In this document: in pieces, positions 7,463 to 58,429 of the stretch
Layout of the letters: every line of letters begins with the position of its first letter
Numbering within the stretch: position 1 is the stretch's first letter
IMG/VR virus record: IMGVR_UViG_3300036793_000172
Location: 1 to 64,000 of that record
Reading direction: 5' to 3' (one strand)
DNA from: a virus
Lineage: Duplodnaviria; Caudoviricetes
DNA length: 64,000 nt
Notes under the pieces: model-generated
Told to the model about the DNA's origin: nothing
The model's database searches: none
The model's input: the letters and a program-made list of their open reading frames with translations, nothing else
Position numbers and translations under genes: made by a program

Positions 7463-7491
7463 GACCGATCCCTTTCTACCCAAGGAGACCG

Positions 7492-39947: not shown

Positions 39948-40937
39948 CTACGACTTAGAGATGGTTGCAATTCCGCGAGGATTCAAGATCAACATCGACA
40001 CCATTTCATCGAAGACCCAGCCCTTCCAGAACGCGTCCACGTGGTGGTTCTCTTCCACGTCGAGCGAGTAGAGGACGGGGAACACGCCGAGGAAGTTCGG
40101 CTCCGGCGTCAGGAAGATCGTGCCCTGCGGCACGATGATCGAACGCTGGATCTGGAACTCGCCGAACGTCGTGATGGTCTCACCGGCGACGACGCGGTCC
40201 TTGAACGCCCAACCCGTGGTGTTGATGTCCCACCGGAAGAAGTCCCGGTAGTCCATCGGGTTCACGAGCAGACGGGCCGACTGGAGTTCGTGCATGTCGG
40301 TCTGGGCCACGGCCGTGTACAGCGAGGCCGGGGTGAAGTACCCCGATGCCTCGGTGATGGTGTGGTCCGGGGTGACGATGTGGTCCGGCCGAGTCGCGTA
40401 GTCGTTGACTGCGGACTGGAGCAGGACCATCAGGCGGGAGTCTTCCTGCTTGAGGATCGCCTGCTTGGTCTCGTCCTGGGCCTGCTCAACCGCGTTGATG
40501 CGGAGGTAGAACAGGTCCTCCTTGCGGATCGCTGGCTGCGAGGCGATGCGGAAGAACCGCACCGGAACGCGCTTGCCCTCGAACGGGGTGATGCGAACTT
40601 CACCCTCGTGACCGGACATGATGTACGCCTGGCCGAGGTCGTCCCACACGTCGTACTCGACCGGGGTGCCCGGCGTGACCGGGTCCTCGATGAGCACGTT
40701 GCGGGTGATGCCCTGGTAGCGCAGCTTCAGCTGGATCGGGCCGATCATGCCGACGCCGAGGCGCTTGATCCCGTTGGTGTCGTCCGACAGGATCAAGGCC
40801 ATCTTCTTGACCTTGGCTTCGTGCGTGAGGGCTTGTCCGCCCTCCTTGCGCGCGATGATTCCGGCGACGTAGTCGTCCGACTTCTTCGCGACGCGACCAC
40901 CGAGGCCACCACCTGGGGCGAGAGTCATCTGGCTCAT
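39948..40937 (-). CDS. Major capsid protein (Bxz1-like), 329 aa
   Basis: MIGPIQLKLRYQGI.RNVL.ED, EGEVRITPFEGKR..V..FRIAS.P.I.KEDL and KGWVFDEMVSM..LNPRG match the recalled cluster C-type capsid. Position after the decoration and scaffold genes. Confidence 0.92.
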   Translation of the reverse strand: MSQMTLAPGGGLGGRVAKKSDDYVAGIIARKEGGQALTHEAKVKKMALILSDDTNGIKRLGVGMIGPIQLKLRYQGITRNVLIEDPVTPGTPVEYDVWDDLGQAYIMSGHEGEVRITPFEGKRVPVRFFRIASQPAIRKEDLFYLRINAVEQAQDETKQAILKQEDSRLMVLLQSAVNDYATRPDHIVTPDHTITEASGYFTPASLYTAVAQTDMHELQSARLLVNPMDYRDFFRWDINTTGWAFKDRVVAGETITTFGEFQIQRSIIVPQGTIFLTPEPNFLGVFPVLYSLDVEENHHVDAFWKGWVFDEMVSMLILNPRGIATISKS

Positions 40938-42317: not shown

Positions 42318-43208
42318 TCAGAGGAAGATGTCCTCGGCGCTTCCGTCGTCCACCACACTGGAGGTGGTCTGGATGCTCTGCATGGACGGTGCCTGGCGGG
42401 CACCGGCCGTACGCGGCACCAGACGCGGGTTGCGCTGGGGGTTCCTCTTGGCCGCCGTGCGGACGTTCTCCAGGGTCGCGATCTCCTGCTCGATCGACTC
42501 GGTGGTGCGCGACGCGTCCTTCTCGATCGACGCGCCGAGCGCGAGGTCCGAGTCGGCGTCGGCGATACCGGCCTGGATCTGCAAGCGCGCCAGGCGGATC
42601 GCCGCGAAGGGACGAGAGGTGTCGTCCTTCTTGGACGAGGTCCGCTGGGCGTTGGCGAAGTCACCCTGGAGCGGGAACGCGGTGTTGGGCACCATCGGGT
42701 TGCCCACCCGCACGTCGGACTCGGTCTTGACCTCCGAGAGCGGGCGCGGGTTCTGTGTGCCGTCCACCGGCGCGGTCACGTCCACCAGCTCGTGGAACGC
42801 GGGTGCGCCGATGTCCTGGCCCGGGGTGTAGACCGTGGTGGTCGCGTCGGCGGCCACGTCGTTGGTCGATCCCGGCACCAGGCCCGGGGTCTGCACGTTG
42901 CCCATGGCCTCAGGCGCTTCGGCCTCCTGAGTGGACTGTGTCGCCGGGACGGCCGGAGGCTCAGGCACCGGCTGGGCCGGGTTCTGCGCGTCCGCCTGCT
43001 TGGTCATCGCGGTGACGACCTTGCCCTCGACGCCAGCAAGCTGGCTGAGGTGGCGCAGGCCGAGCCCGAAGCGGTTGATCTGCTCCTGCTGCACCTGGGT
43101 CACGTTGATCAGTGCGGCGACCCGGGCCGCGAGGCGACCGTTGTCCTCGCGCAACTGGGCAATCTCGTTCTGCTGCTCGGCGAGAGCGGCAATTGCTGGT
43201 CGTGCCAT
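42318..43208 (-). CDS. Probable capsid scaffolding protein, 296 aa
   Basis: Between the protease and capsid genes. Coiled-coil N-terminus and P/Q/A/E-rich linker. Confidence 0.62.
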   Translation of the reverse strand: MARPAIAALAEQQNEIAQLREDNGRLAARVAALINVTQVQQEQINRFGLGLRHLSQLAGVEGKVVTAMTKQADAQNPAQPVPEPPAVPATQSTQEAEAPEAMGNVQTPGLVPGSTNDVAADATTTVYTPGQDIGAPAFHELVDVTAPVDGTQNPRPLSEVKTESDVRVGNPMVPNTAFPLQGDFANAQRTSSKKDDTSRPFAAIRLARLQIQAGIADADSDLALGASIEKDASRTTESIEQEIATLENVRTAAKRNPQRNPRLVPRTAGARQAPSMQSIQTTSSVVDDGSAEDIFL

Positions 43209-43251: not shown

Positions 43252-45891
43252 TCACTTCTTCTTGGCGAACGGGTTGCTCTTGACAGGCTTCTTCTTGTCG
43301 TCGCCCGCGTCGTCGTCGGTGTCCTTGTCCGGATCCGAGTCGTCGTCCCCGTCGTCATCCGGGTCGGCGAGATCGCGCGGGTCGACCGGGCCCGGGTCGT
43401 CCTTGCCTGGAGGCGCCTGCTCCTCGTCGTCGGGGACGCCGTCACCGTCCTGGTCCTCGTCGCCCTCCGGCGGGGCTCCCTGCTCGCCGTAGGCGCCTTC
43501 CGCGTCCTGAGCGGGCACCAGGACGCCCTTGCCGCACGCCGGGCACACATCACCCTCGGCGGCCTCTCCGCCGCCCTCCATGCCCTCCTGCTGGGTCATG
43601 GGGTCGCTCGACGCCATCGGGTCGGAACCGGCCTGCGGGTCATCGGTGTCGACGGTGGTCGGCTCGGCCCCGCCGAACTCGGTTCCGCAGTTGTCGCACA
43701 CCAGGTCCGGCTGCACGTCCATGCCCGGGTCGTTCGGGTCCGGGACGATCGAGTCGTCGTAGTCCTGCTGCTGCTGGCGCAGGTCGATCTGCTTGGCCTT
43801 GTCCAGGTCGGGGTCCTGGAACATCTTCGGTGGCGCGACGAACCCGCACACGGGGCAGGCGTTGCCGTCCCAGGCGTCGTCTTCGCCGCAGACGGGGCAG
43901 TTCTCCTCGCGGAGGGTGTCCACGTCGGCGGGCGCCTTCGTCTCGCCGTAGGCCGTGTGACGGCTCGCCTGGTACCCGGTGCCCGGCTGCCGGTAGTTCA
44001 TCTCCGGGAGCTTCTGCTTGCGGAAGTCTTCCCACTTCTGCTCGGAGTTGCTGCGCGACTTCTCGCGGCCGACGTTGAGCTGGTAGTTGGTGCCCTTGCT
44101 CTCGGTCTTCTCCCGCTCGCTCTTCTGGTTCAGCCGCTGCTGCGCCAGCCATGTGACCGCCTGCACCTGGTGCCCCGCGATCGGCTGGCCCTCCTTCTCG
44201 GAGATCTGGCGCGCGGCCTCGTGGTAGTGACTCACCACGTGGTCGTAGTTGCGGCGGTTGAGGGATCCGTCCTTGCGCTTGGTACCGGCCAGCGGTGCCT
44301 TCGAGTAGTCCTCGTCCGACATGCGGTGCCCAGCGGCCACTGACAAGGCGTGCCGGTCGACGACCACGTGCGGCACCGTCGGATCCTTGTCGCCGCCGTG
44401 CTCGATCAGGTGCGCGAAGTCGCGGATCTTGGGTCCAGAGAGCACGTCGTTGTAGTTCGCGCCCTTCAAGACCTTGTCGGCGTTGTTCTTCTGACTCTCC
44501 GAGGCGAGGATGCCGCCGCCCTTGCCGCCGATGCCCTTATGCCCGTCCAGGACTCGCGCGGCGTTGTGCATGTTGGCGACCCACGGCGTCTGCGGCGAGT
44601 AGATCGCGAGCATCCCGGCAGCAAGGTGGTTGTCTCCGTGCGGGTGCCGGAGGTCGTGCGGCTCCTGGGGCTCGGGCTCAGAGAATTCCTTGCCAGCAGA
44701 CAAAGCCTTTGACTTGCGCGTCTCGTGCGCTGCGAGCTGGCGGTGGTAGTCGGCGCTCTCGTCGAGCTTCTCCGGACGCACCGGGGCGAGCTTGGAGATG
44801 CTCTTCGCGATGTTGTGCGCGTCCTTGTACCAGGTCTTGCCGGATGCCTTCTCGTCGTCGGTCGCCTGGTTCCACATCTTCACGATGTTGTCGTGGTGCA
44901 CCGGGTGCGCCTGGAACCACGGGTGGTCTTCCACCTTGTCGTACTTCGCGGCCTCGGCCTGGAGCGCGGCTTCACGGTGCGCCTCGTGCCAGGTGTGGCC
45001 GCAGCCGAAGCACTCGGCGTTGCCCCGGGTATCGGCGATGGTGTCCTTGCACCGGCAGGCGAGGCACTGCGACGCCTGCACGAACTTCAGCGATGCCCAG
45101 CGCGATTCCGGCGACGGAGCCGGGAGACGGCGCGGCGGCTCGGGAGTAGTCCATTGCGGACCCGGGTCGATCTGGCGTGCAGCTGTCCGGCGGGTCGAAG
45201 TCATCGCGAGATGGTCAAGGCCGGGACCCAGCTCCGGCTTGCCCAGGAAGTACGCGGTCGGATCAGCCGGGGGCTCGACCAAGAGCGAGTTCTCGAAGAA
45301 CCTCAGCCCGTAGCAGGTCTCCCGGATCAGGGTGCCGACCTTTCGACCGGAACCCGTTACCCTGTAATGGGTTTTGCCCTTCATTCCGGGCACGTGCGCG
45401 CAGTACTCCAGCGGCGTGGTGGCCTTGCGGTTGCACACCGAGCAGATCGAGTAGGCCACGTCCACGCCCATCGACGTGCGCTCGATATGTCCGAGGATGA
45501 TCGCCTTCGCCAGCTTCGGGTATTTGAGCCCGTCGACCTCCATGAGGCCCTCGACCCACGTGTCCGGCGTGCCGTCGGGGTTGCGGTCCTCGTGCAGGGC
45601 CGCGTCGATGATGAGCCCGCGCATGCGCCGGTGGTCGTCGTTGTGGTGGTTGACGAACACGGGCTTGCCGATGAAGGTGCGATAGCCCTTTGCGATCTCC
45701 TCGGCCGGGAACTCGTCGAAGTTGTCATTGCAACGGGAGCTGATCATCCGCGAGCGGACGTACAGCATCCCGTGCTTCGGGGTGTAGCTGAACTCATGCC
45801 GATGGGCGACGCGGGCGTTGGCCGGAAGCTCCACGCCGGACCCGTCACTCCAGTTGGCGCTCAGGATCTCCGCCGTGGCGAACTTCAGCAC
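43252..45891 (-). CDS. Prohead (capsid maturation) protease polyprotein with an inserted domain, Zn ribbons and acidic tail, 879 aa
   Basis: N-domain NDNFDEF..EE...Y.TFIGKPVFVNH...RG.I.DA...TSMG..V.YS.CSVC (His/Ser protease pattern), several CxxC pairs, and a D/E-rich tail ending NPFAKKK. Confidence 0.8.
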   Translation of the reverse strand: MLKFATAEILSANWSDGSGVELPANARVAHRHEFSYTPKHGMLYVRSRMISSRCNDNFDEFPAEEIAKGYRTFIGKPVFVNHHNDDHRRMRGLIIDAALHEDRNPDGTPDTWVEGLMEVDGLKYPKLAKAIILGHIERTSMGVDVAYSICSVCNRKATTPLEYCAHVPGMKGKTHYRVTGSGRKVGTLIRETCYGLRFFENSLLVEPPADPTAYFLGKPELGPGLDHLAMTSTRRTAARQIDPGPQWTTPEPPRRLPAPSPESRWASLKFVQASQCLACRCKDTIADTRGNAECFGCGHTWHEAHREAALQAEAAKYDKVEDHPWFQAHPVHHDNIVKMWNQATDDEKASGKTWYKDAHNIAKSISKLAPVRPEKLDESADYHRQLAAHETRKSKALSAGKEFSEPEPQEPHDLRHPHGDNHLAAGMLAIYSPQTPWVANMHNAARVLDGHKGIGGKGGGILASESQKNNADKVLKGANYNDVLSGPKIRDFAHLIEHGGDKDPTVPHVVVDRHALSVAAGHRMSDEDYSKAPLAGTKRKDGSLNRRNYDHVVSHYHEAARQISEKEGQPIAGHQVQAVTWLAQQRLNQKSEREKTESKGTNYQLNVGREKSRSNSEQKWEDFRKQKLPEMNYRQPGTGYQASRHTAYGETKAPADVDTLREENCPVCGEDDAWDGNACPVCGFVAPPKMFQDPDLDKAKQIDLRQQQQDYDDSIVPDPNDPGMDVQPDLVCDNCGTEFGGAEPTTVDTDDPQAGSDPMASSDPMTQQEGMEGGGEAAEGDVCPACGKGVLVPAQDAEGAYGEQGAPPEGDEDQDGDGVPDDEEQAPPGKDDPGPVDPRDLADPDDDGDDDSDPDKDTDDDAGDDKKKPVKSNPFAKKK

Positions 45892-45958: not shown

Positions 45959-46141
45959 TCACTTGAAGGACGTGAGGTAGCCGTCATGCTCTTCCCAATA
46001 AACCTTGTCACGTGTTCCGCGACGGGTTTTGAGGTACCGCCGGATCTCCGTGACGGTGACGCCGGAGAGCAGGCGACGACCGTTGCGGAGGAGGTCGTAA
46101 CGGTCGTCGCCCTGACGTTCGAGCATCCAGGTGTCGCTCAT
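45959..46141 (-). CDS. Hypothetical protein, 60 aa
   Basis: ATGA overlap with the collagen-like gene. Confidence 0.65.
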
Positions 46142-47013
46142 GTAGTCGGCGGGCTGGTGGTGGGCGTCTGCTCGCACCGGAGGTACGTCGGGCCGGTCGG
46201 GTTGCCCAGTGCGTCGGTGTCCTGGTGCTGCTGGGCCGTGTAGCCGTCCGGGCACGTCGGTCCGGGCTGTCCCTGCGCGCCTTGCTGGCCGGTGGCACCC
46301 GTCGCTCCTGTGGCTCCGGTGTCGCCCTTCACGCCCTGCTGTCCCTGGGCGCCAGTCGCGCCGGTCGCACCCGTATCGCCCTTCACGCCCTGCCCCCCCG
46401 TATCACCTTTTGGGCCAGTCACCGGCGGAGGAATCAACGGTTTGATCAAGTCGGTGAGGTGTTGATCCGACGGGGGCGCGGGGATGAGCGGTTTGATGAT
46501 CGCCAGAAGTTCTTCCGTCGTTGGCGTATGGCCGTTCTGCGGCGGATTCTCGGTGATAACCTGGCGAATGAGAGCACGTAGTTGATCGTCAGTAGGGGTA
46601 AGACCCGGGGTGCCGGAAGGGCCGACAGGGCCCGGGGCGGGAACGGTGGCGACCGGTTTCCCGCCCAGTGCACGCACCTGGTTCTCCAGGGCGTTGCCGT
46701 CTCCCTGCACCTTCGACAACTGGGCTTCGAGCGAGTTGATGTGGCTCTGGTTGTCGGCCGTGGTGCTCTGGATCGCCGTGGTGCGGGCGAACGAGAACAC
46801 CACGGCGATGATGAGAGCACCGAGGACCATCAAGCCAGCGATGCGCCAGCGGCGATCGGTGCGGTCCATCTTGCGCAGGTCGGCGTCACGTGCCTCGATC
46901 TGATCCATCAGGTGCGCAGCACGAGCGCTGACGCGGTACCCGTCGTCACGTTCCACAACGGGGGAGAAGCGGCCGTCTTCCAGGCTTTCTGTCTCAGGTT
47001 CGGTGTGCCGCAT
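46138..47013 (-). CDS. Membrane-anchored coiled-coil plus collagen-like (GXY) protein, 291 aa
   Basis: TM segment [20 protein letters not shown], a coiled coil, and about 17 GXY triplets (about 46259-46417). SD GGAG. Confidence 0.82.
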
Positions 47014-47016
47014 GAT

Positions 47017-47367
47017 TTACTCCGGGACCACAGGGGCCCGTGGGGGGATCGGAATATCGTGTCGTACGAGCAGCCGTTCTAGTGTCGCACTCCAAGTGGC
47101 CTCCCGCTCATAAGCCTGTCGCATGACTTCTCGGTTCGTCCGGGCTTCCACGGCGTCGAGCCGGGCCTCCCGGGCGTCCTTCTGGGCTTCTTCGCGCTCG
47201 GCGAGCATGCGCGCGTTGTCGTCTTTGAGGGCCTTATAGTCGTCCTGGCGTACTTCACGCAAGTGCAGGCGCTTCTGATTGCGTGCGTCGTAGATCGTCT
47301 TGAGGAGCGTTCCGCCGACGAGGGCGACGATCACACTGCCGATGATCTGCCAGACTTCAGGAGTCAT
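47017..47367 (-). CDS. Single-TM coiled-coil protein, 116 aa
   Basis: VWQIIGSVIVALVGG TM segment followed by a charged helix. Start reassigned to ATG 47367. Confidence 0.72.
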   Translation of the reverse strand: MTPEVWQIIGSVIVALVGGTLLKTIYDARNQKRLHLREVRQDDYKALKDDNARMLAEREEAQKDAREARLDAVEARTNREVMRQAYEREATWSATLERLLVRHDIPIPPRAPVVPE

Positions 47368-47773
47368 CGCTATCATCACCCCCGTCGCGGAAAAGGTAAT
47401 TGACAGTCCGGTAGCGCTCAAGCACCCAGCCGCCACTCGCCAAGATCAAACACACGATGACGATGGTTCCGGACACCGAGGCGACCTGGCTGGAGAACAT
47501 CTTCCAGACCAGCGCCGCCGCGTAGATGGTGGTGCCGCCCATGATCATCGGAAGCCCCAGTTGCTCGTAAAAGGGGCGATCAGTCGTCACGGCGATCAGC
47601 GAGAGCGCGCCGCCGATGACGAGAAAAGCAAACCTAATCGTGTTAGGCCATTCCGGGTCTGTGAACGTCGCGGAAGGCGGGGGAGAGATCAATCCCACGA
47701 CCCCCGCCAAGATCAGCAAGACGTAAATGCCGCCCTGGATCCACCGCGACGCCCTGCCAACCCTGGTGATCAC
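47357..47773 (-). CDS. Four-TM membrane protein, 138 aa
   Basis: Four hydrophobic segments. The GTG start directly follows the upstream TAA. Confidence 0.75.
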   Translation of the reverse strand: MITRVGRASRWIQGGIYVLLILAGVVGLISPPPSATFTDPEWPNTIRFAFLVIGGALSLIAVTTDRPFYEQLGLPMIMGGTTIYAAALVWKMFSSQVASVSGTIVIVCLILASGGWVLERYRTVNYLFRDGGDDSDDS

Positions 47774-48378: not shown

Positions 48379-51300
48379 TTACATAAACAGTTCTTCAGGG
48401 TCCTCGGAATCCATTCCAAGGGCCTTACTGAGGGCTTCGTAGTGGGTGCCCTCGATCTTGAGATCGCCGAAGTTGCGGGCTCGGGCGCCGTCGCGGGCAC
48501 CCTCGTTGATCAGGTCCTGCTGCTCGGCGAAGTCGAAGTCACGCAGGGCGGACTTCTGCAAACCCTTGTCCTGTGCCAAGTAGGCCCGCGCCGAGGCGGT
48601 GAAGTCGAAGCTCACGTCGTTCCCTTCCTGCTTCGCCGGGGTGGCCCCGGTCATGATCCCTTGCGCGGCGGCCGTGGCCTGGAAGCTGGCCACGATGTCG
48701 CCGACCGAGCCGGTGAACTGGTTCGGTGTGGCCGAGCCCTCGTCGGCGTCGATCGAGGAGGCGGTCTCCGGCGGCTGGTACTGCGCGATCGGGTTGTCCG
48801 GCACCGGGTCCTCGGCGCCACCGTCCGTGGACGGCAGTGCGGGCTCCGGCTCCTCGTGCAAGGTCCCGTAGTAGCCCATGGAGTCGTAGGAGTCCGACGA
48901 GAGCAGGTTGGTCGGCACCTCGTCCTCGTTGTTCCAGCTCTTCGGGTCCTCGCTGGTGGCGAAGCCGGTCGAGCCGGGGTTCTGCGAGTTCGAGTGCAGG
49001 GGCGCGGCGTAGGGGAAACCGGGCTGGTCGTCCTCGCCCTGCAACGGCGACCACGAGTCGTGCGCGGCCGTCTTCTGCTCACCCGCCTTGGCGATCTCGT
49101 TCCACGGCGCCGACTTCATTTCCTTACGGAGCGCAGGGTTTTTCTTCGCGTGGTCGATGTCCCACCACGCGGCCTGCTCGTGGCAGTCGCCCTTGGGGTC
49201 GTCCGGGTTGGGGATGACCCTGCCATCCTTCATGGACAAGTCCTTTTCGGACGGGATAACCACCACGTGGCCTTGGTACACACCGTTCGGGGAAGTCCAG
49301 GTGTGGTGGACCACGCCGCCCTCGGGGAACTTCTGGCCGACCTCCTCTTCCCACTCGCGGACGGCCGCGTGCAGGCTCGTGGTGTCGCCCTCCTCGTGGT
49401 GACCGCCGGGCAGCTCCCACGTGCCGCGCGCCGGGTCCTTCTCGTCGTCGAGCCCGCGCTGGAGCATGAGGATGCGGCCCGTGTCGGCGGCCTTCAGTGC
49501 GACGCCGGAGACGGTGGGGCCGTCCTTCTTGGCCGCGAGCACCGGGCCCAGCTCGTCAACGTCCACCAGACCCATCTCGTCATCGAGGCCTCCGGTGTGC
49601 AACGAACTGGTGTCGGAGATGCCGCCGGACATCATCGGGCCCATGTCCGGGTTCTGATCCGAGACCGGGTCGGCCGTGTGCCCTTGACCGTCCTCGGCGA
49701 CCTGTCCCGTGCCGCCGCAGTGGCCGCAGCCCCAACCGGCGCACTGCGGGCAGTTGGTAAGCGGCAGCCCGATCCAGGAGGGGATGCCGTAGCCGAAGTC
49801 GGGCGCGTGCCGCCGGGTGTCGTTGGTCTTGTGGTGCTTGCGCCGTTCGTCGTCGATGACCGAGCCGATGAAGCCGATGGCGTGGCCACAGTGCGAGCAC
49901 TTGTGCTTCTCGATGGCCTCTTCGGTCAGCGTGCCGCCGCAGTACGGGCACTTGCGGCGGTGCTCTTCGTCCTCTTCCTCGGCGACCATCTGCAAAGCGG
50001 CCGAGTGCGTGAGCCCGTACGCCATAAGGATCTTCATGACATCGGCGGGATCGTCGTCGTTGTCGAGCATCGCGCTCGCGATCGTCGACAAGGGACTGTC
50101 GGAGATGCCGGGCACCTCGTCCGGCTCGTGCGCCTCGCCGAAGACGAGAGCCCCGAGCTTGATCTCCCGGCCGAACATGCCCCGGCTCTGCGCCTCGTAC
50201 ATCAGCGCGAGCGAGTGCGAGCACTGGCGGCCGTGGAACCGCAGCCGGTCCCAGGCCCAGTCGCCCCACTTGCAGTCGCACGACCAGTCAGCGATCTTGA
50301 AGGTGCCGGGCCGGTAGGTGATGTAGTTCTGGTACGCGCCGTGGTCGCCCTGGACCTCACCGGCCAGCCCCTCGGTGGTGGCGACCTTGATGTTCACCTT
50401 GCCCTCGCGGCGGATGCGCTTGGCCTTGTTGCGCACGTCCGTCCAGCTCGCGACGACCTGGAACCGGAACTCCTCGTCCTTGCGGGCGGTGCGCAGCATC
50501 AGGGCCGCTGCCTCAGGTGCGATCTGAGGCCTTTGCGACCGTCCCCGACGTGCGTAGTCGTCCATTGCCTTCTGACGACGCTCCTGGCGCTCCTCGGGTG
50601 TCTCCTGGGGCTTCTGCTGCTTCGGGGCACGCGGAGGGGACGGGTACGGGCAGTACCTGTCCGTGCAGTACTTGGTCTTGACGCCGTCCGGATGGTCGGT
50701 GGTCTCCAGGTGCTCCCTGATCTGGCTCTTGAGGAACTGCCGGTTCTCCTCGTGCTGGCGGGCCAGCTCCTCATCGGACACCGCATCGGCGTGACCGGAG
50801 CCGCCGCAGGCCTCACACGTTTCCCGGCGCATCCGGTAGGCGTCCGGGTCCTCCTCCGGGTGAACGCCCGGCTTCTCCTGGTAGTCCGGGTTCTCTTCTT
50901 CAATGTCGTAGTGGCCGTTGCCCTCGCACTCCGGGCACGGACCGGCGGGGATCGCGCTCTCGTGCCGCAGCGACGCGCGGTAGAAGGTGCTCTCCGCCAG
51001 GTTCCGTTGCAGCTGCGTCGGCCGGTAGAGGTCCTTCTTGTCGGCGTTGTCCGGGTGGTCGAGGTCGAGCTTCGGGTCGCCCGGGTCCTGGTAGCTGTTC
51101 CACCACTTCTGCCCGGCTGGCGACCGGCCGCCGTGGTCGAACATGTGGGTCGGGTGCTGACGCCGCAGCTCGTCCTGCATGGCGCTGCCGTAGCCCTTGC
51201 CCCGGCTCTCCTCGTCATAGACCTTCATGTCGTGGATGGCCAGGGCCGGGTGGGCTGGGTCGCCGGGCTTGGTCTTGGAGTAGTAGATCGTCCCCGCGAC

Positions 51301-52974
51301 TCCGGACCCGTGATTGGGCCCCTGATGCGGACCGTTGTGGATCTTGAAGAGGTGGTGCGACCAGCCCGGGTGAGTCTCTTCGCCTTCCTCGTGCCAGGGG
51401 TCGGCACGGCCCTCCCAGACCGGGTGGTCGTTGCCGGGTCCCACGGCGTTGTAAGTGGTGAAGTCGACCCCCGTGGGCGGCTCGGGGTGATTGCGCGACG
51501 GCATGGCGAGCTTCGAGCTGAGTTGACCGTCCATTTTGGATCCCTTGGCGCTCATCAAGGCTTGTGGACCCGGCTCGGAGATCGGGCACACCTGCTGCTC
51601 CCACCGGGTTGTCCATGGGCACGCACCACGGTTCTGAGGGACAGCCAACAGCGTGTTGTTGCGGTCGTTCGGGAAGGTGCACTGCGCCATGCGGCGCCAC
51701 GTGCACCAGTCGGGTCCATCGCTTGCTGCCGTCCGGCTGGTACCCGCGTCCCGGGACATCTCGGTCAGCGTGCACACGCCGTCGTCGTGGTGGCGGATCG
51801 CGTGATCGCGGTCGTGGTCCGGGAAGTCGCAATCGGTCGCCATCCCATACCGGGCGCCGTGCTTCTGCAACGTGCCGTGCACGTCGTAACCGGTGTCCTC
51901 GTCGTAGTGCGGGAAACCGTGCTTGTCCGCATCGTAGACGAGCGCCTGCACGGGTTCCTTACGCAGCAACGCGGACGCGGTGCGGTGGTGGCCTTCGACG
52001 GCGAAGAGGTTGTTCTCGTGCTTGACGAACATCGGGTGGTGCGTGCCGGGGTAGCTCTGCCCGACCTCGGTGACGCCGTGCTCTTTCACGTGCTGCACAT
52101 CATCGCCGGGGTTCTGCACGTACCTGTTCACATGCTTGTCCACCACGTACGGCTGGGTCGCGTACACGTGGTGCTTGGACAAGTCGACATTCCGGACTTC
52201 GCCCCTGTCGCGCCAATCCTGGTAATCGTTCTCGTTGTGGTTGGACAGCATGTGGTAGAGGCCCTCGTGATGAGCGACCGGCTTGATGTCGTTTTCCTTA
52301 TCCTGCTTGGCTTTCTCGTACGCCTCGCCGTGGCGCTCGTGGTATCCCGAGGGGTAGTCGTCGTAGTCCTCGTAATGCCCGCGCTCGTACGTGTTCGGAT
52401 CCGGTGCCGTGTCGTCCCACAGGTTCTCGTCGAAGCCGCCCTCGGGATGGCGACTGCCGTACAGGGCCCGGTCCTCTTCCTTGTGAAACTCGTGCTGACC
52501 CTCGTAGCCCTCGACGTAACCGGCGAAGCCAGCGTGCTTCACCGGCGTCAGCGTGTGCAGACGGCTGAAGTGCTGCTCGCCGGTGCGGTGGTCGTGGCCG
52601 AACCGGGTCAGCAGCGCGTGCGTCTCCGGGTCGGTGAGCTTCGAGATGCGGTCGTTGTTCGGCCGGGCAAGCGGGTCGTACACGGTCGCACCCGCGCCGC
52701 CGACGCCGCCGGAGCGGGGGTCGGCGTCCGGCTTCGGGTGGTTCGAGGGGTCGCCGATCAGCTCCGGCGTCCACTGTGCGCCGTCGTGCGCGGACATGGT
52801 GCCGCCGCACGCGGTGCACGTTGCCTGCCGGACCTTGCCGTTATCGGTCAGGTCGGTGAAGTCGTTCGCTCCGCAGTAGGAGCACGACGCGGGCTGCTCC
52901 TTGTTCGGCAGGACGGCCTCGGCTGGACCCGTGTTGTCCTGCTCCAACGCGAACTTGCGGAAGTTGAAGCCCAT
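48379..52974 (-). CDS. Large polyvalent protein: ParB-like, GNAT, SWIM Zn finger, Zn ribbons and Nudix hydrolase domains, 1531 aa
   Basis: ATQPYV...FAVEGHHR (ParB-like), IHDMKV.DEESRGKGYGSAM...SPAGQKWW (GNAT), WSCDC...CSH (SWIM), WELPGGHHEEGDTTSLHAAVREWEEEVG (Nudix box). Confidence 0.85.
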   Translation of the reverse strand: MGFNFRKFALEQDNTGPAEAVLPNKEQPASCSYCGANDFTDLTDNGKVRQATCTACGGTMSAHDGAQWTPELIGDPSNHPKPDADPRSGGVGGAGATVYDPLARPNNDRISKLTDPETHALLTRFGHDHRTGEQHFSRLHTLTPVKHAGFAGYVEGYEGQHEFHKEEDRALYGSRHPEGGFDENLWDDTAPDPNTYERGHYEDYDDYPSGYHERHGEAYEKAKQDKENDIKPVAHHEGLYHMLSNHNENDYQDWRDRGEVRNVDLSKHHVYATQPYVVDKHVNRYVQNPGDDVQHVKEHGVTEVGQSYPGTHHPMFVKHENNLFAVEGHHRTASALLRKEPVQALVYDADKHGFPHYDEDTGYDVHGTLQKHGARYGMATDCDFPDHDRDHAIRHHDDGVCTLTEMSRDAGTSRTAASDGPDWCTWRRMAQCTFPNDRNNTLLAVPQNRGACPWTTRWEQQVCPISEPGPQALMSAKGSKMDGQLSSKLAMPSRNHPEPPTGVDFTTYNAVGPGNDHPVWEGRADPWHEEGEETHPGWSHHLFKIHNGPHQGPNHGSGVAGTIYYSKTKPGDPAHPALAIHDMKVYDEESRGKGYGSAMQDELRRQHPTHMFDHGGRSPAGQKWWNSYQDPGDPKLDLDHPDNADKKDLYRPTQLQRNLAESTFYRASLRHESAIPAGPCPECEGNGHYDIEEENPDYQEKPGVHPEEDPDAYRMRRETCEACGGSGHADAVSDEELARQHEENRQFLKSQIREHLETTDHPDGVKTKYCTDRYCPYPSPPRAPKQQKPQETPEERQERRQKAMDDYARRGRSQRPQIAPEAAALMLRTARKDEEFRFQVVASWTDVRNKAKRIRREGKVNIKVATTEGLAGEVQGDHGAYQNYITYRPGTFKIADWSCDCKWGDWAWDRLRFHGRQCSHSLALMYEAQSRGMFGREIKLGALVFGEAHEPDEVPGISDSPLSTIASAMLDNDDDPADVMKILMAYGLTHSAALQMVAEEEDEEHRRKCPYCGGTLTEEAIEKHKCSHCGHAIGFIGSVIDDERRKHHKTNDTRRHAPDFGYGIPSWIGLPLTNCPQCAGWGCGHCGGTGQVAEDGQGHTADPVSDQNPDMGPMMSGGISDTSSLHTGGLDDEMGLVDVDELGPVLAAKKDGPTVSGVALKAADTGRILMLQRGLDDEKDPARGTWELPGGHHEEGDTTSLHAAVREWEEEVGQKFPEGGVVHHTWTSPNGVYQGHVVVIPSEKDLSMKDGRVIPNPDDPKGDCHEQAAWWDIDHAKKNPALRKEMKSAPWNEIAKAGEQKTAAHDSWSPLQGEDDQPGFPYAAPLHSNSQNPGSTGFATSEDPKSWNNEDEVPTNLLSSDSYDSMGYYGTLHEEPEPALPSTDGGAEDPVPDNPIAQYQPPETASSIDADEGSATPNQFTGSVGDIVASFQATAAAQGIMTGATPAKQEGNDVSFDFTASARAYLAQDKGLQKSALRDFDFAEQQDLINEGARDGARARNFGDLKIEGTHYEALSKALGMDSEDPEELFM

Positions 52975-52975
52975 C

Positions 52976-53893
52976 TCAGAAGGCCTTCTCGGGGAACCGG
53001 TGTGTTGCTAGACTACACACATGATCAACCTTGCCAAGGTCGGCAGCCGTGGCCCCCGGAAGTCGATCGAGGACCGCTTCTGGAGCAAGGTGACTCGCGC
53101 AGGTGAGACAGATTGCTGGCTGTGGACCGGTGCGACTACCCGCCTCGGATACGGCAATTTTTGGGATGGCACCTACACCGCCCGAGGTCGCCCACGCATG
53201 GTCGAGGCTCACCGCTGGGCCTACTCCCACTTCGTGGTTCCGCCCGGCGAGATGCACGTGCGACACGCCTGCGACGTTCGTGCCTGCGTGAACTTCACGG
53301 CACACCTGCTGCTGGGGACGATCGGAGATAACATTCGCGATCGCGAGGAGCGAGGACGCGGGGTAATCCCTGACAACCGAGGCTTTGCCCGAGGCAAGGG
53401 CGCGAAGCTCACTGCGGATCAAGTCCGCGCCATCCGCGCCGCCAGCACCGGCGCTTGGGGTGAGCAAGGCCGATTGGCGACGGAGTTCGGAGTTTCCCGC
53501 CAGATGATCGGAAGCATCCTCAGCGGGCGACGCTGGGTTGAGTGATGCCCGGACCTGACGAGCAGGATCGGGACGATCGAACAACACGGTTCCGAGTTCT
53601 TCATAGTCGTCCGACGCGAGATGATGCTCGCTCGCGGTCGTCTGCGCGGCCGTACTCAGCTGGGACGCGACGTAGGAGCCGCCGCCCATGCCGTCGTCGA
53701 GCACGACCTGGTACTCCTCGGCCCCGGGCCACGGTCCGTCGAACACCGCCTCGACGGTGCCGAGGATGCCGTCAACGGTCATCACCCGCTGCGTCGGCTT
53801 GAAGTCCCAGTAGTCTTCCGAACTCACTCCACCGGTCTTCTGCACGCCGAGAGTGTCGTGGGCGATCCGGGTGTGCCGACCGCTGAAGTTCAT
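52976..53893 (-). CDS. Head-region protein; about 116 genuine N-terminal codons, then read-through antisense to the HNH gene
   Basis: SD GAGGAGG before ATG 53893. No stop until TGA 52976-52978, 1 nt before the 52974 start. Confidence 0.6.
   Translation of the reverse strand: MNFSGRHTRIAHDTLGVQKTGGVSSEDYWDFKPTQRVMTVDGILGTVEAVFDGPWPGAEEYQVVLDDGMGGGSYVASQLSTAAQTTASEHHLASDDYEELGTVLFDRPDPARQVRASLNPASPAEDASDHLAGNSELRRQSALLTPSAGAGGADGADLIRSELRALASGKASVVRDYPASSLLAIANVISDRPQQQVCREVHAGTNVAGVSHVHLAGRNHEVGVGPAVSLDHAWATSGGVGAIPKIAVSEAGSRTGPQPAICLTCASHLAPEAVLDRLPGATAADLGKVDHVCSLATHRFPEKAF
53000..53020 (+). promoter_or_regulatory. Extended -10 promoter for a leaderless HNH transcript
   Basis: TG-C-TAGACT (53006-53014) ends 6 nt before ATG 53021, with no SD. 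It sits inside a GTGTGT/ACACAC inverted repeat. Confidence 0.55.
53021..53545 (+). CDS. HNH homing endonuclease with C-terminal HTH, 174 aa
   Basis: FWSKV...CWLW.G...GYG...AHR...VRH.CD.RACVN..HL..GT..DN..D, then KLTADQVRAIR...LA.EFGVS...I..I..G..W. Opposite strand to its neighbours. Confidence 0.93.
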   Translation: MINLAKVGSRGPRKSIEDRFWSKVTRAGETDCWLWTGATTRLGYGNFWDGTYTARGRPRMVEAHRWAYSHFVVPPGEMHVRHACDVRACVNFTAHLLLGTIGDNIRDREERGRGVIPDNRGFARGKGAKLTADQVRAIRAASTGAWGEQGRLATEFGVSRQMIGSILSGRRWVE

Positions 53894-53908
53894 GGCTGCC
53901 TCCTCGCT

Positions 53909-53940
53909 TCTTAGATCGGCATTTCCGGGTCTCAGGCAGG
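53909..53940 (-). promoter_or_regulatory. Late-promoter-like motif copy (CCTGC-N22-TAAGA)
   Basis: Upstream of ATG 53893. Confidence 0.5.
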
Positions 53941-54168
53941 CCCTGCGCAACCTTTCTCGTCCTCGACGGCATCCACTACCGCCTGGGCGAGATCGATCGT
54001 GAACTGGACCGGCTTGCCCAGCAGCGAGCGGGAGGTCACGCAGACCTCGATGCCCGCGCGGAGGATGTCCCGCACGGGTCCGCGCAGTGTGGCCGGTTCG
54101 ATCACGTCGAGGTGCGCCAGGGCCGCCGACATCAGCGACGAGGCGCTGCGTGGGGAGTGCTCGTTCAT
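53932..54168 (-). CDS. Hypothetical protein, 78 aa
   Basis: ATGA overlap with the portal stop. Confidence 0.65.
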   Translation of the reverse strand: MNEHSPRSASSLMSAALAHLDVIEPATLRGPVRDILRAGIEVCVTSRSLLGKPVQFTIDLAQAVVDAVEDEKGCAGPA

Positions 54169-56348
54169 GCGGTCTCCTCGTCCCATTCGGCCTTCCACTG
54201 CTCGTCGCGGGGCACGTGGACGTGACGGCGCATCCCGGCGTGCTTCGGACCGCCGAAGCGGCCGGTCGGCCGGTAGTCCTCCGGTCGCTTCTCCTCCGAG
54301 TTGTCCGGCGGCGTGAAGTGCTCGGCCGTCGCCTCACGGATCTGGCCGTAGGCGTAGCGGAAACCGGCGGTCTTGCGGGAGGCCGGTTTCGGCATGGTGG
54401 CGCGCTGCTCGTCGGACTCGGCCGGTCGCTGATCGCCGGGGTTCTGCCCTTGCGGCGGAGGCATGAGGATCACCTGTCCTTGTCCGGTCGCCTGGTCGGT
54501 CGGGGTACCACCCTCGGTGTCCTGGTCGGTGTTGGCCAGGTCGTCCGGTGTCGGCGCGAGCGCGGGGTTGTCCGGCGGCACGGCACCGAGGGCCGGGATG
54601 GCCGCGTCCTGCCCGGCCATCTCCTCGCTCTGCGGCTTCATCGCCTTCGGCTGGAAGTCCTGCTTCAGGTCGTCCGGGATCGGCAGGTTCTGGTCCCGCA
54701 GCGCCAGGTAGGTCTCGCGGCGGGTCTCCTGCTCGGCGATCGCCAGCGCCACCTGCTCGGCCTTGCGGACTTCGAGCATGTCGTCGAAGTCGATGCCGGT
54801 GTTCTCCAGCCGGTTGTGGTACGGGACCGGCACGCCGCTCATGTTGAGCGATTCGAGGAACTGGCGCTCCATCTGCTCGTCGGCGAGGTTCATGGTGGCG
54901 AACTTCAGCTCCGGCACGAGTAGCTTCGGCTGCTCCACGATGCGCTGCTCGCCGGTCTCCTCGTCGACCTCCAGGACCTCTTCCATCTTCACGTATCGCT
55001 TGCCGCCGCGCTCCTCGTAGTCCCAGTGCTCCTGGGCCTCGGCCACAATGGACGCCCGGTCCTGGAAGAAGTCGGAGATCTGGCGCTGGTAGTGGGTCAG
55101 CAGTTGCGTGACGATGTCGCGGTTCAGGGCGTCGGCCGCGTACGTCTCGCCCTGGTCGGCTCCCTGGAGGACGGTGCGGGAAAGACCGAACACCTGGAGG
55201 ATGCGGTCCTCGATGCGCTCGAAGTCGGCCGTCAGGTCGGGCATGTTCTCCCGCCCGAACACGGGCGCCATGTCGGTGGCGAAGTGCGAGGTGAGCACCC
55301 GGAAGTCACCGGCCAGGGCCGCGTCCATCGACTCCTCGAAGTCCAGCAGATCGTCGGGCGTGGGGATCCACGGCGAGTCGGTGCCGAGATCACTTGCCGA
55401 TGCGCCAAGCTTTACGAGGATCAGTGGCGTGTAGAGCCGGTCGGCGATCGCGTCGAGTGCCGAGTTGAGCATCTCCTCCTGAAGGATCGCGCGGAAGCCG
55501 CGCATCAGGATCGGCAGACCGCGCTTGTGGAACGTGTCGCCCTTGAACTTGATCTGCTTCAGCAGCATGTTCGAGACCGGCATGAGGGCGTCCTCGCCCG
55601 CGTACGCGGTCAGCTCGGGGTAGTTCTGGACGAGCGCGTTGTACTCCCACACCGGCTGGCGGTCCTGGAGGACCTTGCGCAGCGTCTCGGGCAGGCGGAT
55701 GAGGAAGCGCGGGTCCTTGAGGAACGGCGACTTCTCCACGTTCACGTCGTCGGGGTTGAGCAGTTCGTCGTCTTCCCAGACGCCAAGGGTTTCGTTGAAC
55801 GAGCCGAGCGGCCACGCCTCGCCGGTGATCCAGTACTCACGGCCGACGTCGATCAGGTAGTTGCGGTAGTCGAGCTGATCGAAGAACAGGTCCTCGTAGA
55901 AGCCCTTGATCTGGTCGTCCTTGCAGTCGACCTCGATGCCCTGCAAGGGGAACTTCGTGAAGATGTCGATGCACGCCGCGACGATCGGGTGCGTCAGGTA
56001 CAGCAGGCGGCAGAACTGCCTGATCTTCCTGAGTTCGTCCTCTTTGGTCACGTCGAACGGCAGGTTGTTCTGCCGCCAGTAGAACATCGGGTCGCGAGGG
56101 CGGCCGGTCGCGAACGACACGTTGGCCGTCTGCGTCCCGGTCGCACCCGAGCCTGCCGCCGTGCGGCGCATCCCGAGGCGCTGCTTGCGCATGCGCGTCA
56201 TGACCTCGGCGCTGTTGTCCTTCGCCGCGTTGCCGATGTTCGGCAAGGACACGCCGGTCTTCGGCATCCTCCTCGCCTCGGACACCGACTGGTTCAGGAT
56301 CAGTCCACCGGCGCGACGCCTGCGGTCGTTGACCTCGAAATCCGCCAC
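54165..56348 (-). CDS. Portal protein (Bxz1-like), 727 aa
   Basis: CRLLYLTHPIVAACIDIF.KFPL.G, GREYW..GEA.P...LLNPD.V and RGLPIL.RGFR...YTPLIL.KLG portal-type motifs. Confidence 0.87.
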   Translation of the reverse strand: MADFEVNDRRRRAGGLILNQSVSEARRMPKTGVSLPNIGNAAKDNSAEVMTRMRKQRLGMRRTAAGSGATGTQTANVSFATGRPRDPMFYWRQNNLPFDVTKEDELRKIRQFCRLLYLTHPIVAACIDIFTKFPLQGIEVDCKDDQIKGFYEDLFFDQLDYRNYLIDVGREYWITGEAWPLGSFNETLGVWEDDELLNPDDVNVEKSPFLKDPRFLIRLPETLRKVLQDRQPVWEYNALVQNYPELTAYAGEDALMPVSNMLLKQIKFKGDTFHKRGLPILMRGFRAILQEEMLNSALDAIADRLYTPLILVKLGASASDLGTDSPWIPTPDDLLDFEESMDAALAGDFRVLTSHFATDMAPVFGRENMPDLTADFERIEDRILQVFGLSRTVLQGADQGETYAADALNRDIVTQLLTHYQRQISDFFQDRASIVAEAQEHWDYEERGGKRYVKMEEVLEVDEETGEQRIVEQPKLLVPELKFATMNLADEQMERQFLESLNMSGVPVPYHNRLENTGIDFDDMLEVRKAEQVALAIAEQETRRETYLALRDQNLPIPDDLKQDFQPKAMKPQSEEMAGQDAAIPALGAVPPDNPALAPTPDDLANTDQDTEGGTPTDQATGQGQVILMPPPQGQNPGDQRPAESDEQRATMPKPASRKTAGFRYAYGQIREATAEHFTPPDNSEEKRPEDYRPTGRFGGPKHAGMRRHVHVPRDEQWKAEWDEETA

Positions 56349-56360
56349 GCCTACTCCCTA

Positions 56361-56543
56361 TTACTCTGTGGCGGGCTCTTCCGCCACCGTTTCGTCGTCG
56401 GCCTTCTTCAGCACTCCCCAGGAGATGAGCTTATCGACGTGGGTCTGATCCCTGGGTGTTTCGTAAGGGATTTCGACCTGCGAGCCGATCTCGTGCCTGC
56501 CTTCGGGGGAAATCCAGTTGTCCGTCACAATAAATTGCGCCAT
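56361..56543 (-). CDS. Small hypothetical protein, 60 aa
   Basis: TGATG overlap with the upstream gene. Ends before the portal SD. Confidence 0.65.
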   Translation of the reverse strand: MAQFIVTDNWISPEGRHEIGSQVEIPYETPRDQTHVDKLISWGVLKKADDETVAEEPATE

Positions 56544-58429
56544 CAGAATCCATTCTCCTCGCGGATCTTCGTCAGGACTGCCTGCGGGTCGCTGGCGTGG
56601 GCAAGCGCGAGATGGCGCACGTACCGGTCCTCGTCGAGCATCGCGCCGGAAACCGTGCGGTACAACAAGGATTTCTTCGCGAACGGGTTGCCGTCGTCGG
56701 AGTCGTCGCCGCCGTCATCCTCGTCGGGTGGGGCCTGCCCTGGCGGCTGCTCCTGGTCGTCCGGAACCCCGTCACCATCCTGATCGGCATTCGGGTCAAC
56801 CGGTTGCCCAGCGGCCGGATCACCCGGATCCTGACCAGGCCACTGTGGACCCATACCCGGCACCTGCACCGGCATACCATTAATGGTTTGCGGGAAGGCA
56901 GGGTATTGCGGCTGAACCTGCACGGTGAAGCAGGCCGAGCAGAATTGGCATTCGATCGTGCCGTCATTGCGCGCCAGCACCTGACCGGATCCGCAGAAGG
57001 GGCAGTGGAACACCACTTCGGCGTCGCCGGAGTCGTGCGCCATGATCACGATGCGCGGCATGCCCTGGGCGATGGCGCGGGCCACCTTGGAGTGTCCGGC
57101 GCCGCTCCAGCCAACCCGGAGGGCGATGCGCTCGTTGTTGCCCAATGTGGAGTGCAGTCCGTCCACATAGCCCTGGTAGAAGTGCTCCGGGTGCGGCGAG
57201 CTGTCGTGGGCACTGTCCATCTCGGACAAGTCCGCGTTGTCAATGTCGGTCGCGTGCTTCTCCCCGAGCAAATGCCCGTGGTGCCACTCCTGCTCTTCCG
57301 GCGGCAGGTCGTCAAAGGACTGACCCCGGGAGTGCTTGATCCAGTCCTGGGAGGTGAGCTTGCGCTCGACCCCGGCGCCGGAGTGCTCTCCCCGGCCGAA
57401 GTAAGCGTCGTGCTCTTCCTGGCCACCGACGATGCCCGGCTGCTCGAACCGGCGCTGCTGTGCGTCCTGGGCGCGGCGGAACTCGTCCCAGTCGGCCGCA
57501 TAGTGCGGGTTGTAGGTGGTGGTGTTCGCGCTGGTGGTGCCGTTCGTGGTGGTGGTGATGTACGTCGGGCAGTACGTGTGGATGTCCGGGGCGTACCACC
57601 GTCCGGCGTTCCAGTGGCCGTTGGCGCTGGCCGTGTGCCGGTACTGGCCGAGGTCGTGCGCCATCTCGTGCATGTGCTGCGGAAGGATGCCGATCTTCTG
57701 GTCGCCGAACTCGCCGTTCAGGTGCAGGAACGCGTTCTGCCCCCGGGTCTCGCTGGTCATCGCCGGGCGCGCGTGCGGGGAGAACATCTTCGAGTGCGCC
57801 GCGAAGGCCGCCTCCTCGCCGTGGGCGTCGAAGCCACGGCCGGTGGCAGCGTGGCCGAACGCGTCGTGCACCGCGCGGAACTTGTCGTTGTCGTCGTCGG
57901 AGAAGAACGGGTGGCTGCCGGTGCTAGCGGTCTTCAGCACCTTGATGCGCTTGTTGTCGCGCAGATCCGACACCATCTCGTGGACGTTCTTGTACGGGTC
58001 GTAGTCCACCGGGTGGACCTTGATTCCCATGCGGTTCGTCAAGTGATCGTACTGCTGGTTGACTTCGTCGCCCATGCGGTGGAAAGCAGGCACGGCCTTG
58101 TCATCCCAGTCGGGCAGCTTCTGGTACGCCCGGCCGATCGTCTTCAGGTCGTGGGCGTTGGTGCGCACGTCGGCGTAGCTGTGGTCGTGCGGGTCGCCCA
58201 GGCCGACGTTGCGGTTGTAGGCGCGGGCACCCTCGATGATGTTGTGCACGCCCTCGAAGGGCGCGTTGTGCACGTGGTGGTCCTCGCGCCCGACAGCCTC
58301 GGCACGTTCGTCCTGAATGTGCTGGGGAAGGATGAGCGCACCGTGGTGCACGGGCAGACGGCGGCCGTTCGAGGTGTGGTACACCCCGAACTTCTGCTTC
58401 TGCCACAACTCGTGCGGGTGGTTCTCCAC
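56543..58429 (-). CDS. Modular head-region protein: zincin-like domain, Zn ribbon and acidic tail, 628 aa
   Basis: FRAVHDAFGH...GEEAAF..H...ETRGQN, CPFC...CQFC and DQDGDGVPDD...NPFAKK motifs. Confidence 0.75.
   Translation of the reverse strand: MENHPHELWQKQKFGVYHTSNGRRLPVHHGALILPQHIQDERAEAVGREDHHVHNAPFEGVHNIIEGARAYNRNVGLGDPHDHSYADVRTNAHDLKTIGRAYQKLPDWDDKAVPAFHRMGDEVNQQYDHLTNRMGIKVHPVDYDPYKNVHEMVSDLRDNKRIKVLKTASTGSHPFFSDDDNDKFRAVHDAFGHAATGRGFDAHGEEAAFAAHSKMFSPHARPAMTSETRGQNAFLHLNGEFGDQKIGILPQHMHEMAHDLGQYRHTASANGHWNAGRWYAPDIHTYCPTYITTTTNGTTSANTTTYNPHYAADWDEFRRAQDAQQRRFEQPGIVGGQEEHDAYFGRGEHSGAGVERKLTSQDWIKHSRGQSFDDLPPEEQEWHHGHLLGEKHATDIDNADLSEMDSAHDSSPHPEHFYQGYVDGLHSTLGNNERIALRVGWSGAGHSKVARAIAQGMPRIVIMAHDSGDAEVVFHCPFCGSGQVLARNDGTIECQFCSACFTVQVQPQYPAFPQTINGMPVQVPGMGPQWPGQDPGDPAAGQPVDPNADQDGDGVPDDQEQPPGQAPPDEDDGGDDSDDGNPFAKKSLLYRTVSGAMLDEDRYVRHLALAHASDPQAVLTKIREENGF

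Follow-up and report, generated by a model that had tools for sequence, protein, structure and literature searches.

Here, we describe a 1531-amino-acid (aa) protein (P0001) encoded on the minus strand at positions 48379-52974 of a 64,000-nucleotide stretch of viral DNA (positions 1 to 64,000 of IMG/VR record IMGVR_UViG_3300036793_000172, hereafter the window), which belongs to a 90.8-kb contig with ~65% G+C and an estimated completeness of 59%. The contig is a Bixzunavirus-like actinophage, and the protein is polyvalent in the sense of Iyer et al. 2017 (PMC5512222), that is, of a known kind, represented by a family not described there. A preliminary description of the DNA had placed the protein in this class, and the grounds for doing so hold: a single viral open reading frame (ORF), lying amid structural genes, combines Nudix, ParB/sulfiredoxin (ParB/Srx)-like, GNAT-like and SWIM modules with zinc ribbons. 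The four domains all lie where they had been proposed, with a firm assignment for Nudix, good ones for SWIM and ParB/Srx, and an indirect one for GNAT. We consider it probable that this modular, multi-enzyme protein is made with the head proteins and loaded into the procapsid, from which it may be ejected to act early in infection.

The ORF is a real gene, because 171 database homologues of 850-2680 aa (E values down to 0, search among 5.8 billion proteins) were recovered, mostly from contigs of up to ~175 kb. Its product has an ordinary composition. The ATG start is supported by homologue P0005, which aligns from residue 1, and a Shine-Dalgarno-like GAGAAGG lies ~9 nucleotides upstream of it. 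A SWIM core, a Nudix domain, a linker bearing conserved short motifs and a C-terminal domain recur in almost every relative; the N-terminal half is variable, and the order of modules differs from one relative to another. The domain counts from the homologue search cover 120 listed relatives of the 171, and the counts of module conservation cover 119 homologues. Specifically, Pfam recovers GNAT in 13/120, Arr-ms in 10/120, ParBc in 2/120 and inteins in 2/120. The conserved catalytic and ligand residues of the SWIM, Nudix, ParB and GNAT modules were judged in alignments of 3 to 68 relatives, and we take these motifs to be more than chance resemblances because their key residues are invariant or nearly so.

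Domain assignments along the chain

On the sequence evidence, the Nudix assignment is solid and the strongest of the domain calls. Pfam PF00293 matches residues 1163-1281 with 51.3 bits against a cut-off of 21.1 (E = 1.6e-13), and the Nudix box, anticipated at about 49330-49425, occupies residues 1190-1213 (window positions 49336-49407). Compared with the consensus GX5EX7REUXEEXGU, the RE..EE part is intact (REWEEEVG), and in the upstream part an Asp replaces the Glu and one extra residue is present. T4 NudE, which shares 30% identity over 89 residues, has the same slightly longer box with the same spacing, and its GenBank annotation records activity on FAD, diadenosine polyphosphates, ADP-ribose and NADH. 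The catalytic REx2EE residues (R1206, E1207, E1210 and E1211) do not vary among 15 relatives and hardly vary among 68. The nearest phage Nudix domains (37-47% identity) are all joined to head proteins, namely gp3 of Arthrobacter phage Sonali (portal, Nudix and MuF), gp13 of Pseudanabaena phage Pam4 (MuF and Nudix) and gp52 of Streptomyces phage Gilgamesh (prohead protease S78 and Nudix, adjoining the capsid gene). T4 NudE and the head-fused NudE-like domains resemble the present domain in that all are encoded among late or head genes, and fusions of this sort have been taken as a sign that NudE-like enzymes travel in phage heads (Iyer et al. 2022, PMC9503650). The known cases stand alone or are joined to portal, MuF or protease S78, whereas here the domain is carried by a chassis that contains SWIM.

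In sequence searches of PDB and NCBIfam, the Nudix domain matches MutT-type enzymes best, though always weakly, which would suit a late cytoplasmic housekeeping enzyme that stays out of the virion and whose MutT-like domain cleans the pool of nucleotides while DNA is replicated, with accessory roles for the remaining modules. We regard this as improbable, since T4 NudE, compared pairwise, is about as similar as the MutT enzymes or more so, and in other phages members of this Nudix clade are joined to head proteins. The conserved place of the gene in the head block and the scaffold-like tail of its product, both described below, argue against it as well.

The SWIM call has good support. Pfam PF04434 falls below its cut-off (16.4 against 19.6 bits, E = 0.0067), and the CxC...CxH ligands proposed at about 50200-50290 are found as CxC at residues 899-901 and CxH at 918-920 (50215-50280). 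C899, C901, C918 and H920 are all invariant in 15 relatives; among 68, C918 and H920 remain invariant and C899 and C901 are conserved in at least 90%. In the AF2 model of residues 800-1040 (predicted local distance difference test score, pLDDT, 86), four strands form a sheet and the ligands sit where strand passes into helix, the arrangement in which SWIM zinc fingers, including that of ZSWIM8, carry the same ligands after a small sheet. ZSWIM8 (PDB 9rwz) ranked top of 48,161 chains in the VIA structure search (Z 7.3, root-mean-square deviation (rmsd) 3.5, 88 residues aligned, 18% identity), and Foldseek, of which the VIA search is independent, returned it with a probability of 0.99; as its Z is below 8, we count this as moderate support. 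ZSWIM8 is a eukaryotic ubiquitin-ligase substrate receptor, a function that is not transferable to the phage SWIM core. A three-helix subdomain that follows the core in the model gave only unspecific helical structure matches.

We accept the module at residues 258-365 as a member of the ParB/Srx superfamily, on the strength of its modelled fold, its GHHR motif and relatives that match ParBc_2. Its GHHR motif, proposed within about 51920-52200, lies at residues 328-331 (51982-51993), and 36 relatives carry the module with its signature (Table 1). The AF2 model of residues 235-400 (pLDDT 84) places GHHR between strand 88-93 and helix 95-104 (model numbering), and each of the first 49 Foldseek matches has a ParB/Srx-type fold (probability 0.9-1.0, best E = 5.7e-3), including sulfiredoxin, SerK, ParB, Noc, SbnI, PadC and KorB. 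The VIA scores are middling (Z at most 5.9, rmsd 3.8, 83 residues aligned). The G and R of GHHR are invariant in 61 sequences, and Q274, G328 and R331 are invariant or nearly so. An exhaustive profile search retrieved 238 relatives of the module, many of them solo proteins of 116-270 aa. Among 60 small homologues, 16 match PF08857 (best E = 3.4e-7) and 21 match PF23719, and in the members that we examined individually these matches cover the same stretch as the module. Furthermore, the profile of the relatives aligns GHHR to the GERR box of Helicobacter pylori ParB (4umk, E = 0.0021). The phage module thus shares with the superfamily (ParBc_2 PF08857, sulfiredoxin, SerK, ParB, Noc and SbnI) both the predicted fold and a GxxR phosphate-binding motif at the strand-to-helix junction, but it is a very divergent subfamily that lacks a ParA partner and a helix-turn-helix or parS-binding domain. 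By analogy with its nearest relatives (sulfiredoxin, the serine kinase SerK and ParBc_2), the module would suit a nucleotide-dependent phosphotransferase or nuclease equally well as a degrader of signals.

The GNAT assignment is the weakest of the four and is reached indirectly, through related sequences. The acetyl-CoA loop RGKGYG had been located at about 51080-51320, and it occupies residues 591-596 (51187-51204), where it fits motif A, R/Q-x-x-G-x-G/A, the acetyl-CoA pyrophosphate loop; R591 and G594 are invariant in a three-sequence alignment. Orthologous modules pass the PF00583 cut-off of 20.7 bits in P0004 (29.5), P0005 (25.9) and P0014 (44.8), and the corresponding stretches align with residues 525-610 of the 1531-aa protein (44-53% identity). 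P0014 has a second module, a match to PF14542 (minimal GNAT), to which residues 578-628 are similar as well, and the feature neighbours of the module in the ESM Atlas include viral GNAT clusters at 0.93. A larger GNAT alignment searched against the PDB gave mainly Nudix matches, with RibT at E = 0.41; the single sequence of P0014 found no match in the PDB, and a search for short relatives of the GNAT region returned one match only.

Long linkers separate these modules. The His/Asp-rich character ascribed to them is borne out at residues 105-400, where His makes up 11-12% and Asp 10-13%, compared with 5.6% His in the whole protein, and residues 105-250 are likely a flexible linker. In the Pro-rich linker behind the Nudix domain, the motifs K-T-A, NP.STGFAT.EDP..W and EPALP.T.G are strictly conserved in a region with no predicted fold, and they may be docking or cleavage sites. 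T4 Alt and the T4 internal proteins, which are carried in the head, undergo processing, and by this route the 1531-aa protein could be a polyprotein precursor that the prohead protease cuts at linker motifs into small enzymes carried in the head. We hold such processing to be unlikely, although it is compatible with the explanation that we favour. The long His/Asp-rich and Pro-rich linkers, the conserved K-T-A-type motif directly after the Nudix domain and three more [RKH]TA sites (residues 415, 829 and 1100) speak for it, whereas the motif is only weakly enriched (5 occurrences against ~1.4 expected, a rough estimate), one site lies within a helix of the ParB module and the site before the SWIM core is not conserved. 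P1 DdrB, likewise carried in the head, is a processed polyvalent protein (PMC5512222).

Head-gene block, shared C-terminal tail and a candidate route into the virion

In at least 17 related loci, the gene lies between the portal gene and the protease, scaffold-like and capsid genes. By tblastn, g656, g628, portal, one small conserved gene, polyvalent gene, protease, scaffold-like gene and major capsid gene follow one another in this order, completely or partially, in Mycobacterium phage Tonenili and in no fewer than 17 IMG/VR loci; in the window, small membrane and collagen-like genes stand between the polyvalent gene and the protease. A virion-carried protein fits this arrangement because the gene sits in a conserved head-morphogenesis block and its Nudix clade occurs in other phages joined to portal, MuF or prohead protease. 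Overall, these comparisons and the shared tail described below give good indirect support to packaging of the protein into the virion, and we infer its ejection, its substrates and a role in counter-defence more weakly.

The C-terminus offers a candidate for how loading might occur. The polyvalent protein ends ...EDPEELFM and the 296-aa scaffold-like protein ...SAEDIFL. We defined the tail, in frames of at least 60 aa, as an acidic stretch with [LI]-[FW] behind it and at most two residues more, and among the 548 open frames of the window only these two proteins carry it. Across 15 related loci (2325 frames), the tail is present on 13/15 polyvalent and 8/11 scaffold-like proteins and on only five other frames, a background of ~0.2%. 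Two of these five are the same 375-aa head-module protein (L013, 3451-4578, plus strand; L014, 3756-4883, plus strand), which is encoded between the polyvalent gene and the protease, ends ...PEGGLF and is possibly another cargo. In Tonenili, gp250 ends GLW and the adjoining protease-containing gp249 ends SLFI. The 296-aa protein (42318-43208, minus strand) has a coiled-coil-like N-terminus and is probably the scaffold. In well-studied phages, scaffold C-termini bind coat proteins, and since the tail is common to both proteins, a common docking site in the procapsid would be the simplest reading.

The same tail would also suit an assembly-only factor, which enters the procapsid by its tail and is removed or degraded at maturation, so that its enzymes act in the producing cell or in the procapsid only. 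Consistent with such a role, the tail is common to the scaffold-like protein, a large prohead protease gene adjoins, and [RKH]-T-A motifs occur near module borders in the polyvalent protein and in other head-module proteins. However, the Nudix catalytic residues and the GNAT loop are strictly conserved in a family whose modules shuffle fast, which is a better fit to an effector under selection, and Nudix domains of this clade are joined to portal and MuF proteins, which remain in virions. We therefore judge an assembly-only role to be rather improbable, below the chance that we give to cleavage of a precursor.

Returning to the virion-carried protein that we favour, we propose the following sequence of events. 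The conserved chassis, present in nearly every relative, consists of the N-terminal zinc ribbon, the SWIM core, the NudE-like Nudix domain, the linker and the C-terminal domain, and the variable N-terminal half carries shuffled modules as cargo: the ParB/Srx-like and mini-GNAT modules here, and an Arr-like ADP-ribosyltransferase, extra GNATs and inteins in relatives. Synthesized together with the head proteins, the polyvalent protein would be loaded as its acidic-[LI]-F tail binds the scaffold's site inside the procapsid; it would exit the capsid together with the DNA and be active in the first minutes of infection. There, the substrates hydrolysed by the Nudix domain might be ADP-ribose, NAD-derived or dinucleoside-polyphosphate compounds, a host target might be acylated by the GNAT module, and the ParB/Srx module might serve as a nucleotide-dependent nuclease or phosphotransferase. 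The suggestion in the preliminary description that the Nudix and ParB domains destroy alarmones and that GNAT acetylates host proteins is plausible by analogy with the literature (PMC5512222, PMC9503650).

Several observations weigh against this explanation or against parts of it. The scaffold-like tail could equally mean expulsion or degradation at maturation, as for scaffolds, and the 296-aa protein itself has no PHROG or Pfam match, its scaffold label coming from position and composition only. In two related loci (L004 and L006), the variable N-terminal half is a separate ORF that lacks the tail. MuF (PF04233), the usual anchor, is missing from the protein and from the 90.8-kb contig (~59% complete), and literature searches for virion proteomics or structures of Bixzunavirus found nothing relevant. 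At the level of single modules, ParB_N (PF02195) and ParBc_2 (PF08857) gave no direct match in the contig at E up to 10 or in the protein at E up to 1, and GNAT (PF00583/PF14542) gave no direct Pfam match on the protein or the contig; PDB profiles built from small alignments of the ParB module and of the GNAT module returned chance-level rows only.

A more far-reaching possibility, which we put forward tentatively and as less likely than its opposite, is that the family is a cargo chassis: the C-terminal domain and tail would mimic the scaffold C-terminus and act as a portable tag that brings exchangeable enzymes into Bixzunavirus-like procapsids in an encapsulin-like manner. The parallel is with encapsulin cargo-loading peptides and T4 capsid-targeting sequences: here too, a non-structural enzyme would be sent into an HK97-type shell by a short terminal peptide. 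Unlike the T4 tag, which is N-terminal and cleaved off, the candidate tag here would be C-terminal and a copy of the scaffold-like tail, and it is known from sequence statistics only.

The splitting of the gene in L006 (ORFs 6591-9098 and 9089-11929) and L004 (ORFs 6018-9131 and 9128-11833) separates the N-terminal half from the SWIM-Nudix-C-terminal half, with an overlap of 4-10 nucleotides; the gene may be split and its halves coupled in translation, or a frameshift site may lie here. The first ORF of L006 continues in frame through the small upstream gene.

Relation to known systems and implications

Like the polyvalent proteins of Iyer et al. 2017 (PMC5512222), among them DarB and DdrB of phage P1, the present protein carries many unrelated effector-type domains per chain, is encoded among virion structural genes and has modules that are shuffled between relatives. 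ParB/Srx and GNAT are listed constituents of polyvalent proteins in that work, where SWIM appears solely alongside SNF2 ATPases and Nudix a single time. In contrast to the known members, the protein has no MuF, portal, ArdC or metallopeptidase hub, and its constant part is the combination of SWIM, Nudix and the C-terminal domain with the scaffold-like tail. The carrier is new, a SWIM chassis with a scaffold-like tail taking the place of MuF or portal. Packaging has been shown for the P1 proteins, whereas for the 1531-aa protein we infer it.

The closest named counterparts are gp250 of Mycobacterium phage Tonenili and the 'LysM-like' proteins of Bixzunavirus (PHROG 2940 and 30974), which occupy the same slot between the portal and the protease-capsid genes. 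The SWIM core (~40% identity) and the C-terminal domain of gp250 are homologous and are the only parts in common; gp250 has LysM where Nudix stands here, and it lacks the Nudix, ParB-like and GNAT modules. GenBank labels the Bixzunavirus homologue a 'LysM-like endolysin', which would imply a role in cell-wall binding or lysis. The LysM domain of gp250 and the membrane and holin-like genes just downstream in the window are in line with such a role, but the 1531-aa protein contains neither LysM nor a hydrolase of any wall-degrading family, and with so little in common with gp250 we consider a lytic function highly improbable. The 'endolysin' reading was rejected for this protein, which has no LysM and no muralytic domain.

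Large actinophages, including cluster C mycobacteriophages, carry the family in their head module, and databases name its members 'MutT', 'hydrolase', 'LysM-like endolysin' or not at all, so that our results offer a corrected annotation for at least 171 proteins. The NudE-like Nudix domain, beside the Arr-like ADP-ribosyltransferases of relatives, is a candidate for an early-acting enzyme against Actinobacteria. The shared tail is a simple, testable candidate for a loading signal; if it works, it would explain how cargo is selected and could be used to load reporters into phage particles in Mycobacterium smegmatis. If the cargo-chassis possibility were true, mycobacteriophage capsids could take up, and perhaps deliver, any protein that bears the tag.

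In 10/120 listed relatives (P0011, P0019, P0022, P0045, P0059 and others), an Arr-like rifampin ADP-ribosyltransferase (PF12120) is present in the same chain as Nudix, and the two could form a writer and trimmer pair for ADP-ribose. P0048 and P0069 contain intein and LAGLIDADG domains (PF14528, PF14890 and PF05203) within the polyvalent protein.

Other modules and neighbouring genes

The features of the protein and of the surrounding head-gene block are collected in Table 1. Several CxxCxGxG ribbons had been expected, and we found four such motifs, at residues 680, 720, 1075 and 1083. Their DnaJ-type assignment is by motif only, and the Pfam scan of the protein gave no such family. Two further ribbons are of the CxxC...CxxC type (31/53 and 1009/1026), the first spanning residues 31-56. 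For the C-terminal domain, ESM Atlas features gave no usable match. No module, the C-terminal domain included, resembles other genes of the window. When related loci were searched for, the single-protein query gave no match and the ParB-module alignment returned only four known loci.

Table 1 Features of the polyvalent protein and of neighbouring head genes in the window (res, residues of the 1531-aa protein)
Feature	Position	Strand	Basis
Whole polyvalent gene including stop, 1531 aa, P0001	48379..52974	-	
N-terminal four-Cys zinc ribbon module, res 26-104, CSYC...CTAC	52663..52899	-	Conserved in 94/119 homologues
His/Asp/Glu-rich region, res 105-250, partly conserved	52225..52662	-	H 11%, D 9.6%, E 11.6%
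ParB/Srx-like module, res 258-365, ATQ...GHHR...DADKHG	51880..52203	-	Fold model, Foldseek, VIA, Pfam matches of relatives
Cys/Trp-rich small module, res 415-480	51535..51732	-	In 56/119 homologues; moves independently of neighbours
Mini-GNAT-like module, res 526-640, loop RGKGYG 591-596	51055..51399	-	Orthologous Pfam stretches; Atlas neighbours
Pair of DnaJ-type CxxCxGxG, res 680-727	50794..50937	-	Read from sequence, no Pfam match
SWIM core, four-stranded sheet and CxC...CxH, res 838-940	50155..50463	-	Pfam E 0.0067; ligands; AF2; ZSWIM8
Three-helix subdomain after SWIM, res 956-1006	49957..50109	-	Model
Zinc ribbon (res 1009-1029) and two adjacent CxxCxGxG (res 1075-1090)	49705..49950	-	
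Nudix hydrolase domain, NudE-like, res 1153-1300, box 1190-1213	49075..49518	-	Pfam PF00293, T4 NudE likeness, invariant catalytic residues
Pro-rich linker, res 1301-1384, motifs KTA, NP.STGFAT.EDP, EPALP	48823..49074	-	Invariant columns
C-terminal domain, res 1385-1531, FAEQQ.LI.EG...RARN...GTHY	48382..48822	-	In 118/119 homologues and Tonenili gp250
Acidic-[LI]-F tail PEELFM, like that of the scaffold-like protein	48382..48399	-	
Portal gene, upstream	54165..56348	-	phrog_2833 E 1.5e-146; synteny
879-aa prohead-protease-like protein with DUF7178	43252..45891	-	Prohead-protease and DUF7178 matches
296-aa scaffold-like protein, ends AEDIFL	42318..43208	-	Position and composition only
Major head protein	39948..40937	-	phrog_2522 E 7.5e-105; 61% identity to Tonenili major head protein

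On the strand opposite to the polyvalent gene, the ORF at 48442-53106 was rejected as an antisense artefact of the high-G+C gene, its translation being rich in V, R, L and G. Upstream, a 174-aa ORF on the plus strand (53021-53545) with a weak HNH_3 match (E = 0.0012) lies within a 453-aa ORF of the minus strand (52976-54337), whose start is overlapped by the portal ORF. In related loci, just ~110-130 aa of the 453-aa ORF are conserved and the polyvalent gene follows directly; therefore, a homing-endonuclease-like gene seems to have been inserted on the opposite strand at 53021-53545, with the antisense frame kept open.

Downstream, positions 45959-47436 of the minus strand encode a collagen-repeat protein and small proteins of membrane type, one of which weakly matches a holin PHROG (E = 1.5e-4); the location of such genes between the polyvalent gene and the protease is unusual. 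A second motif common to head-module proteins is NPFAKK[KS]: NPFAKKK forms the end of the 879-aa protease-like protein after a long acidic run, and NPFAKKS stands ~45 residues from the end of the 628-aa protein (phrog_3170; 56543-58429, minus strand) encoded upstream of the portal.

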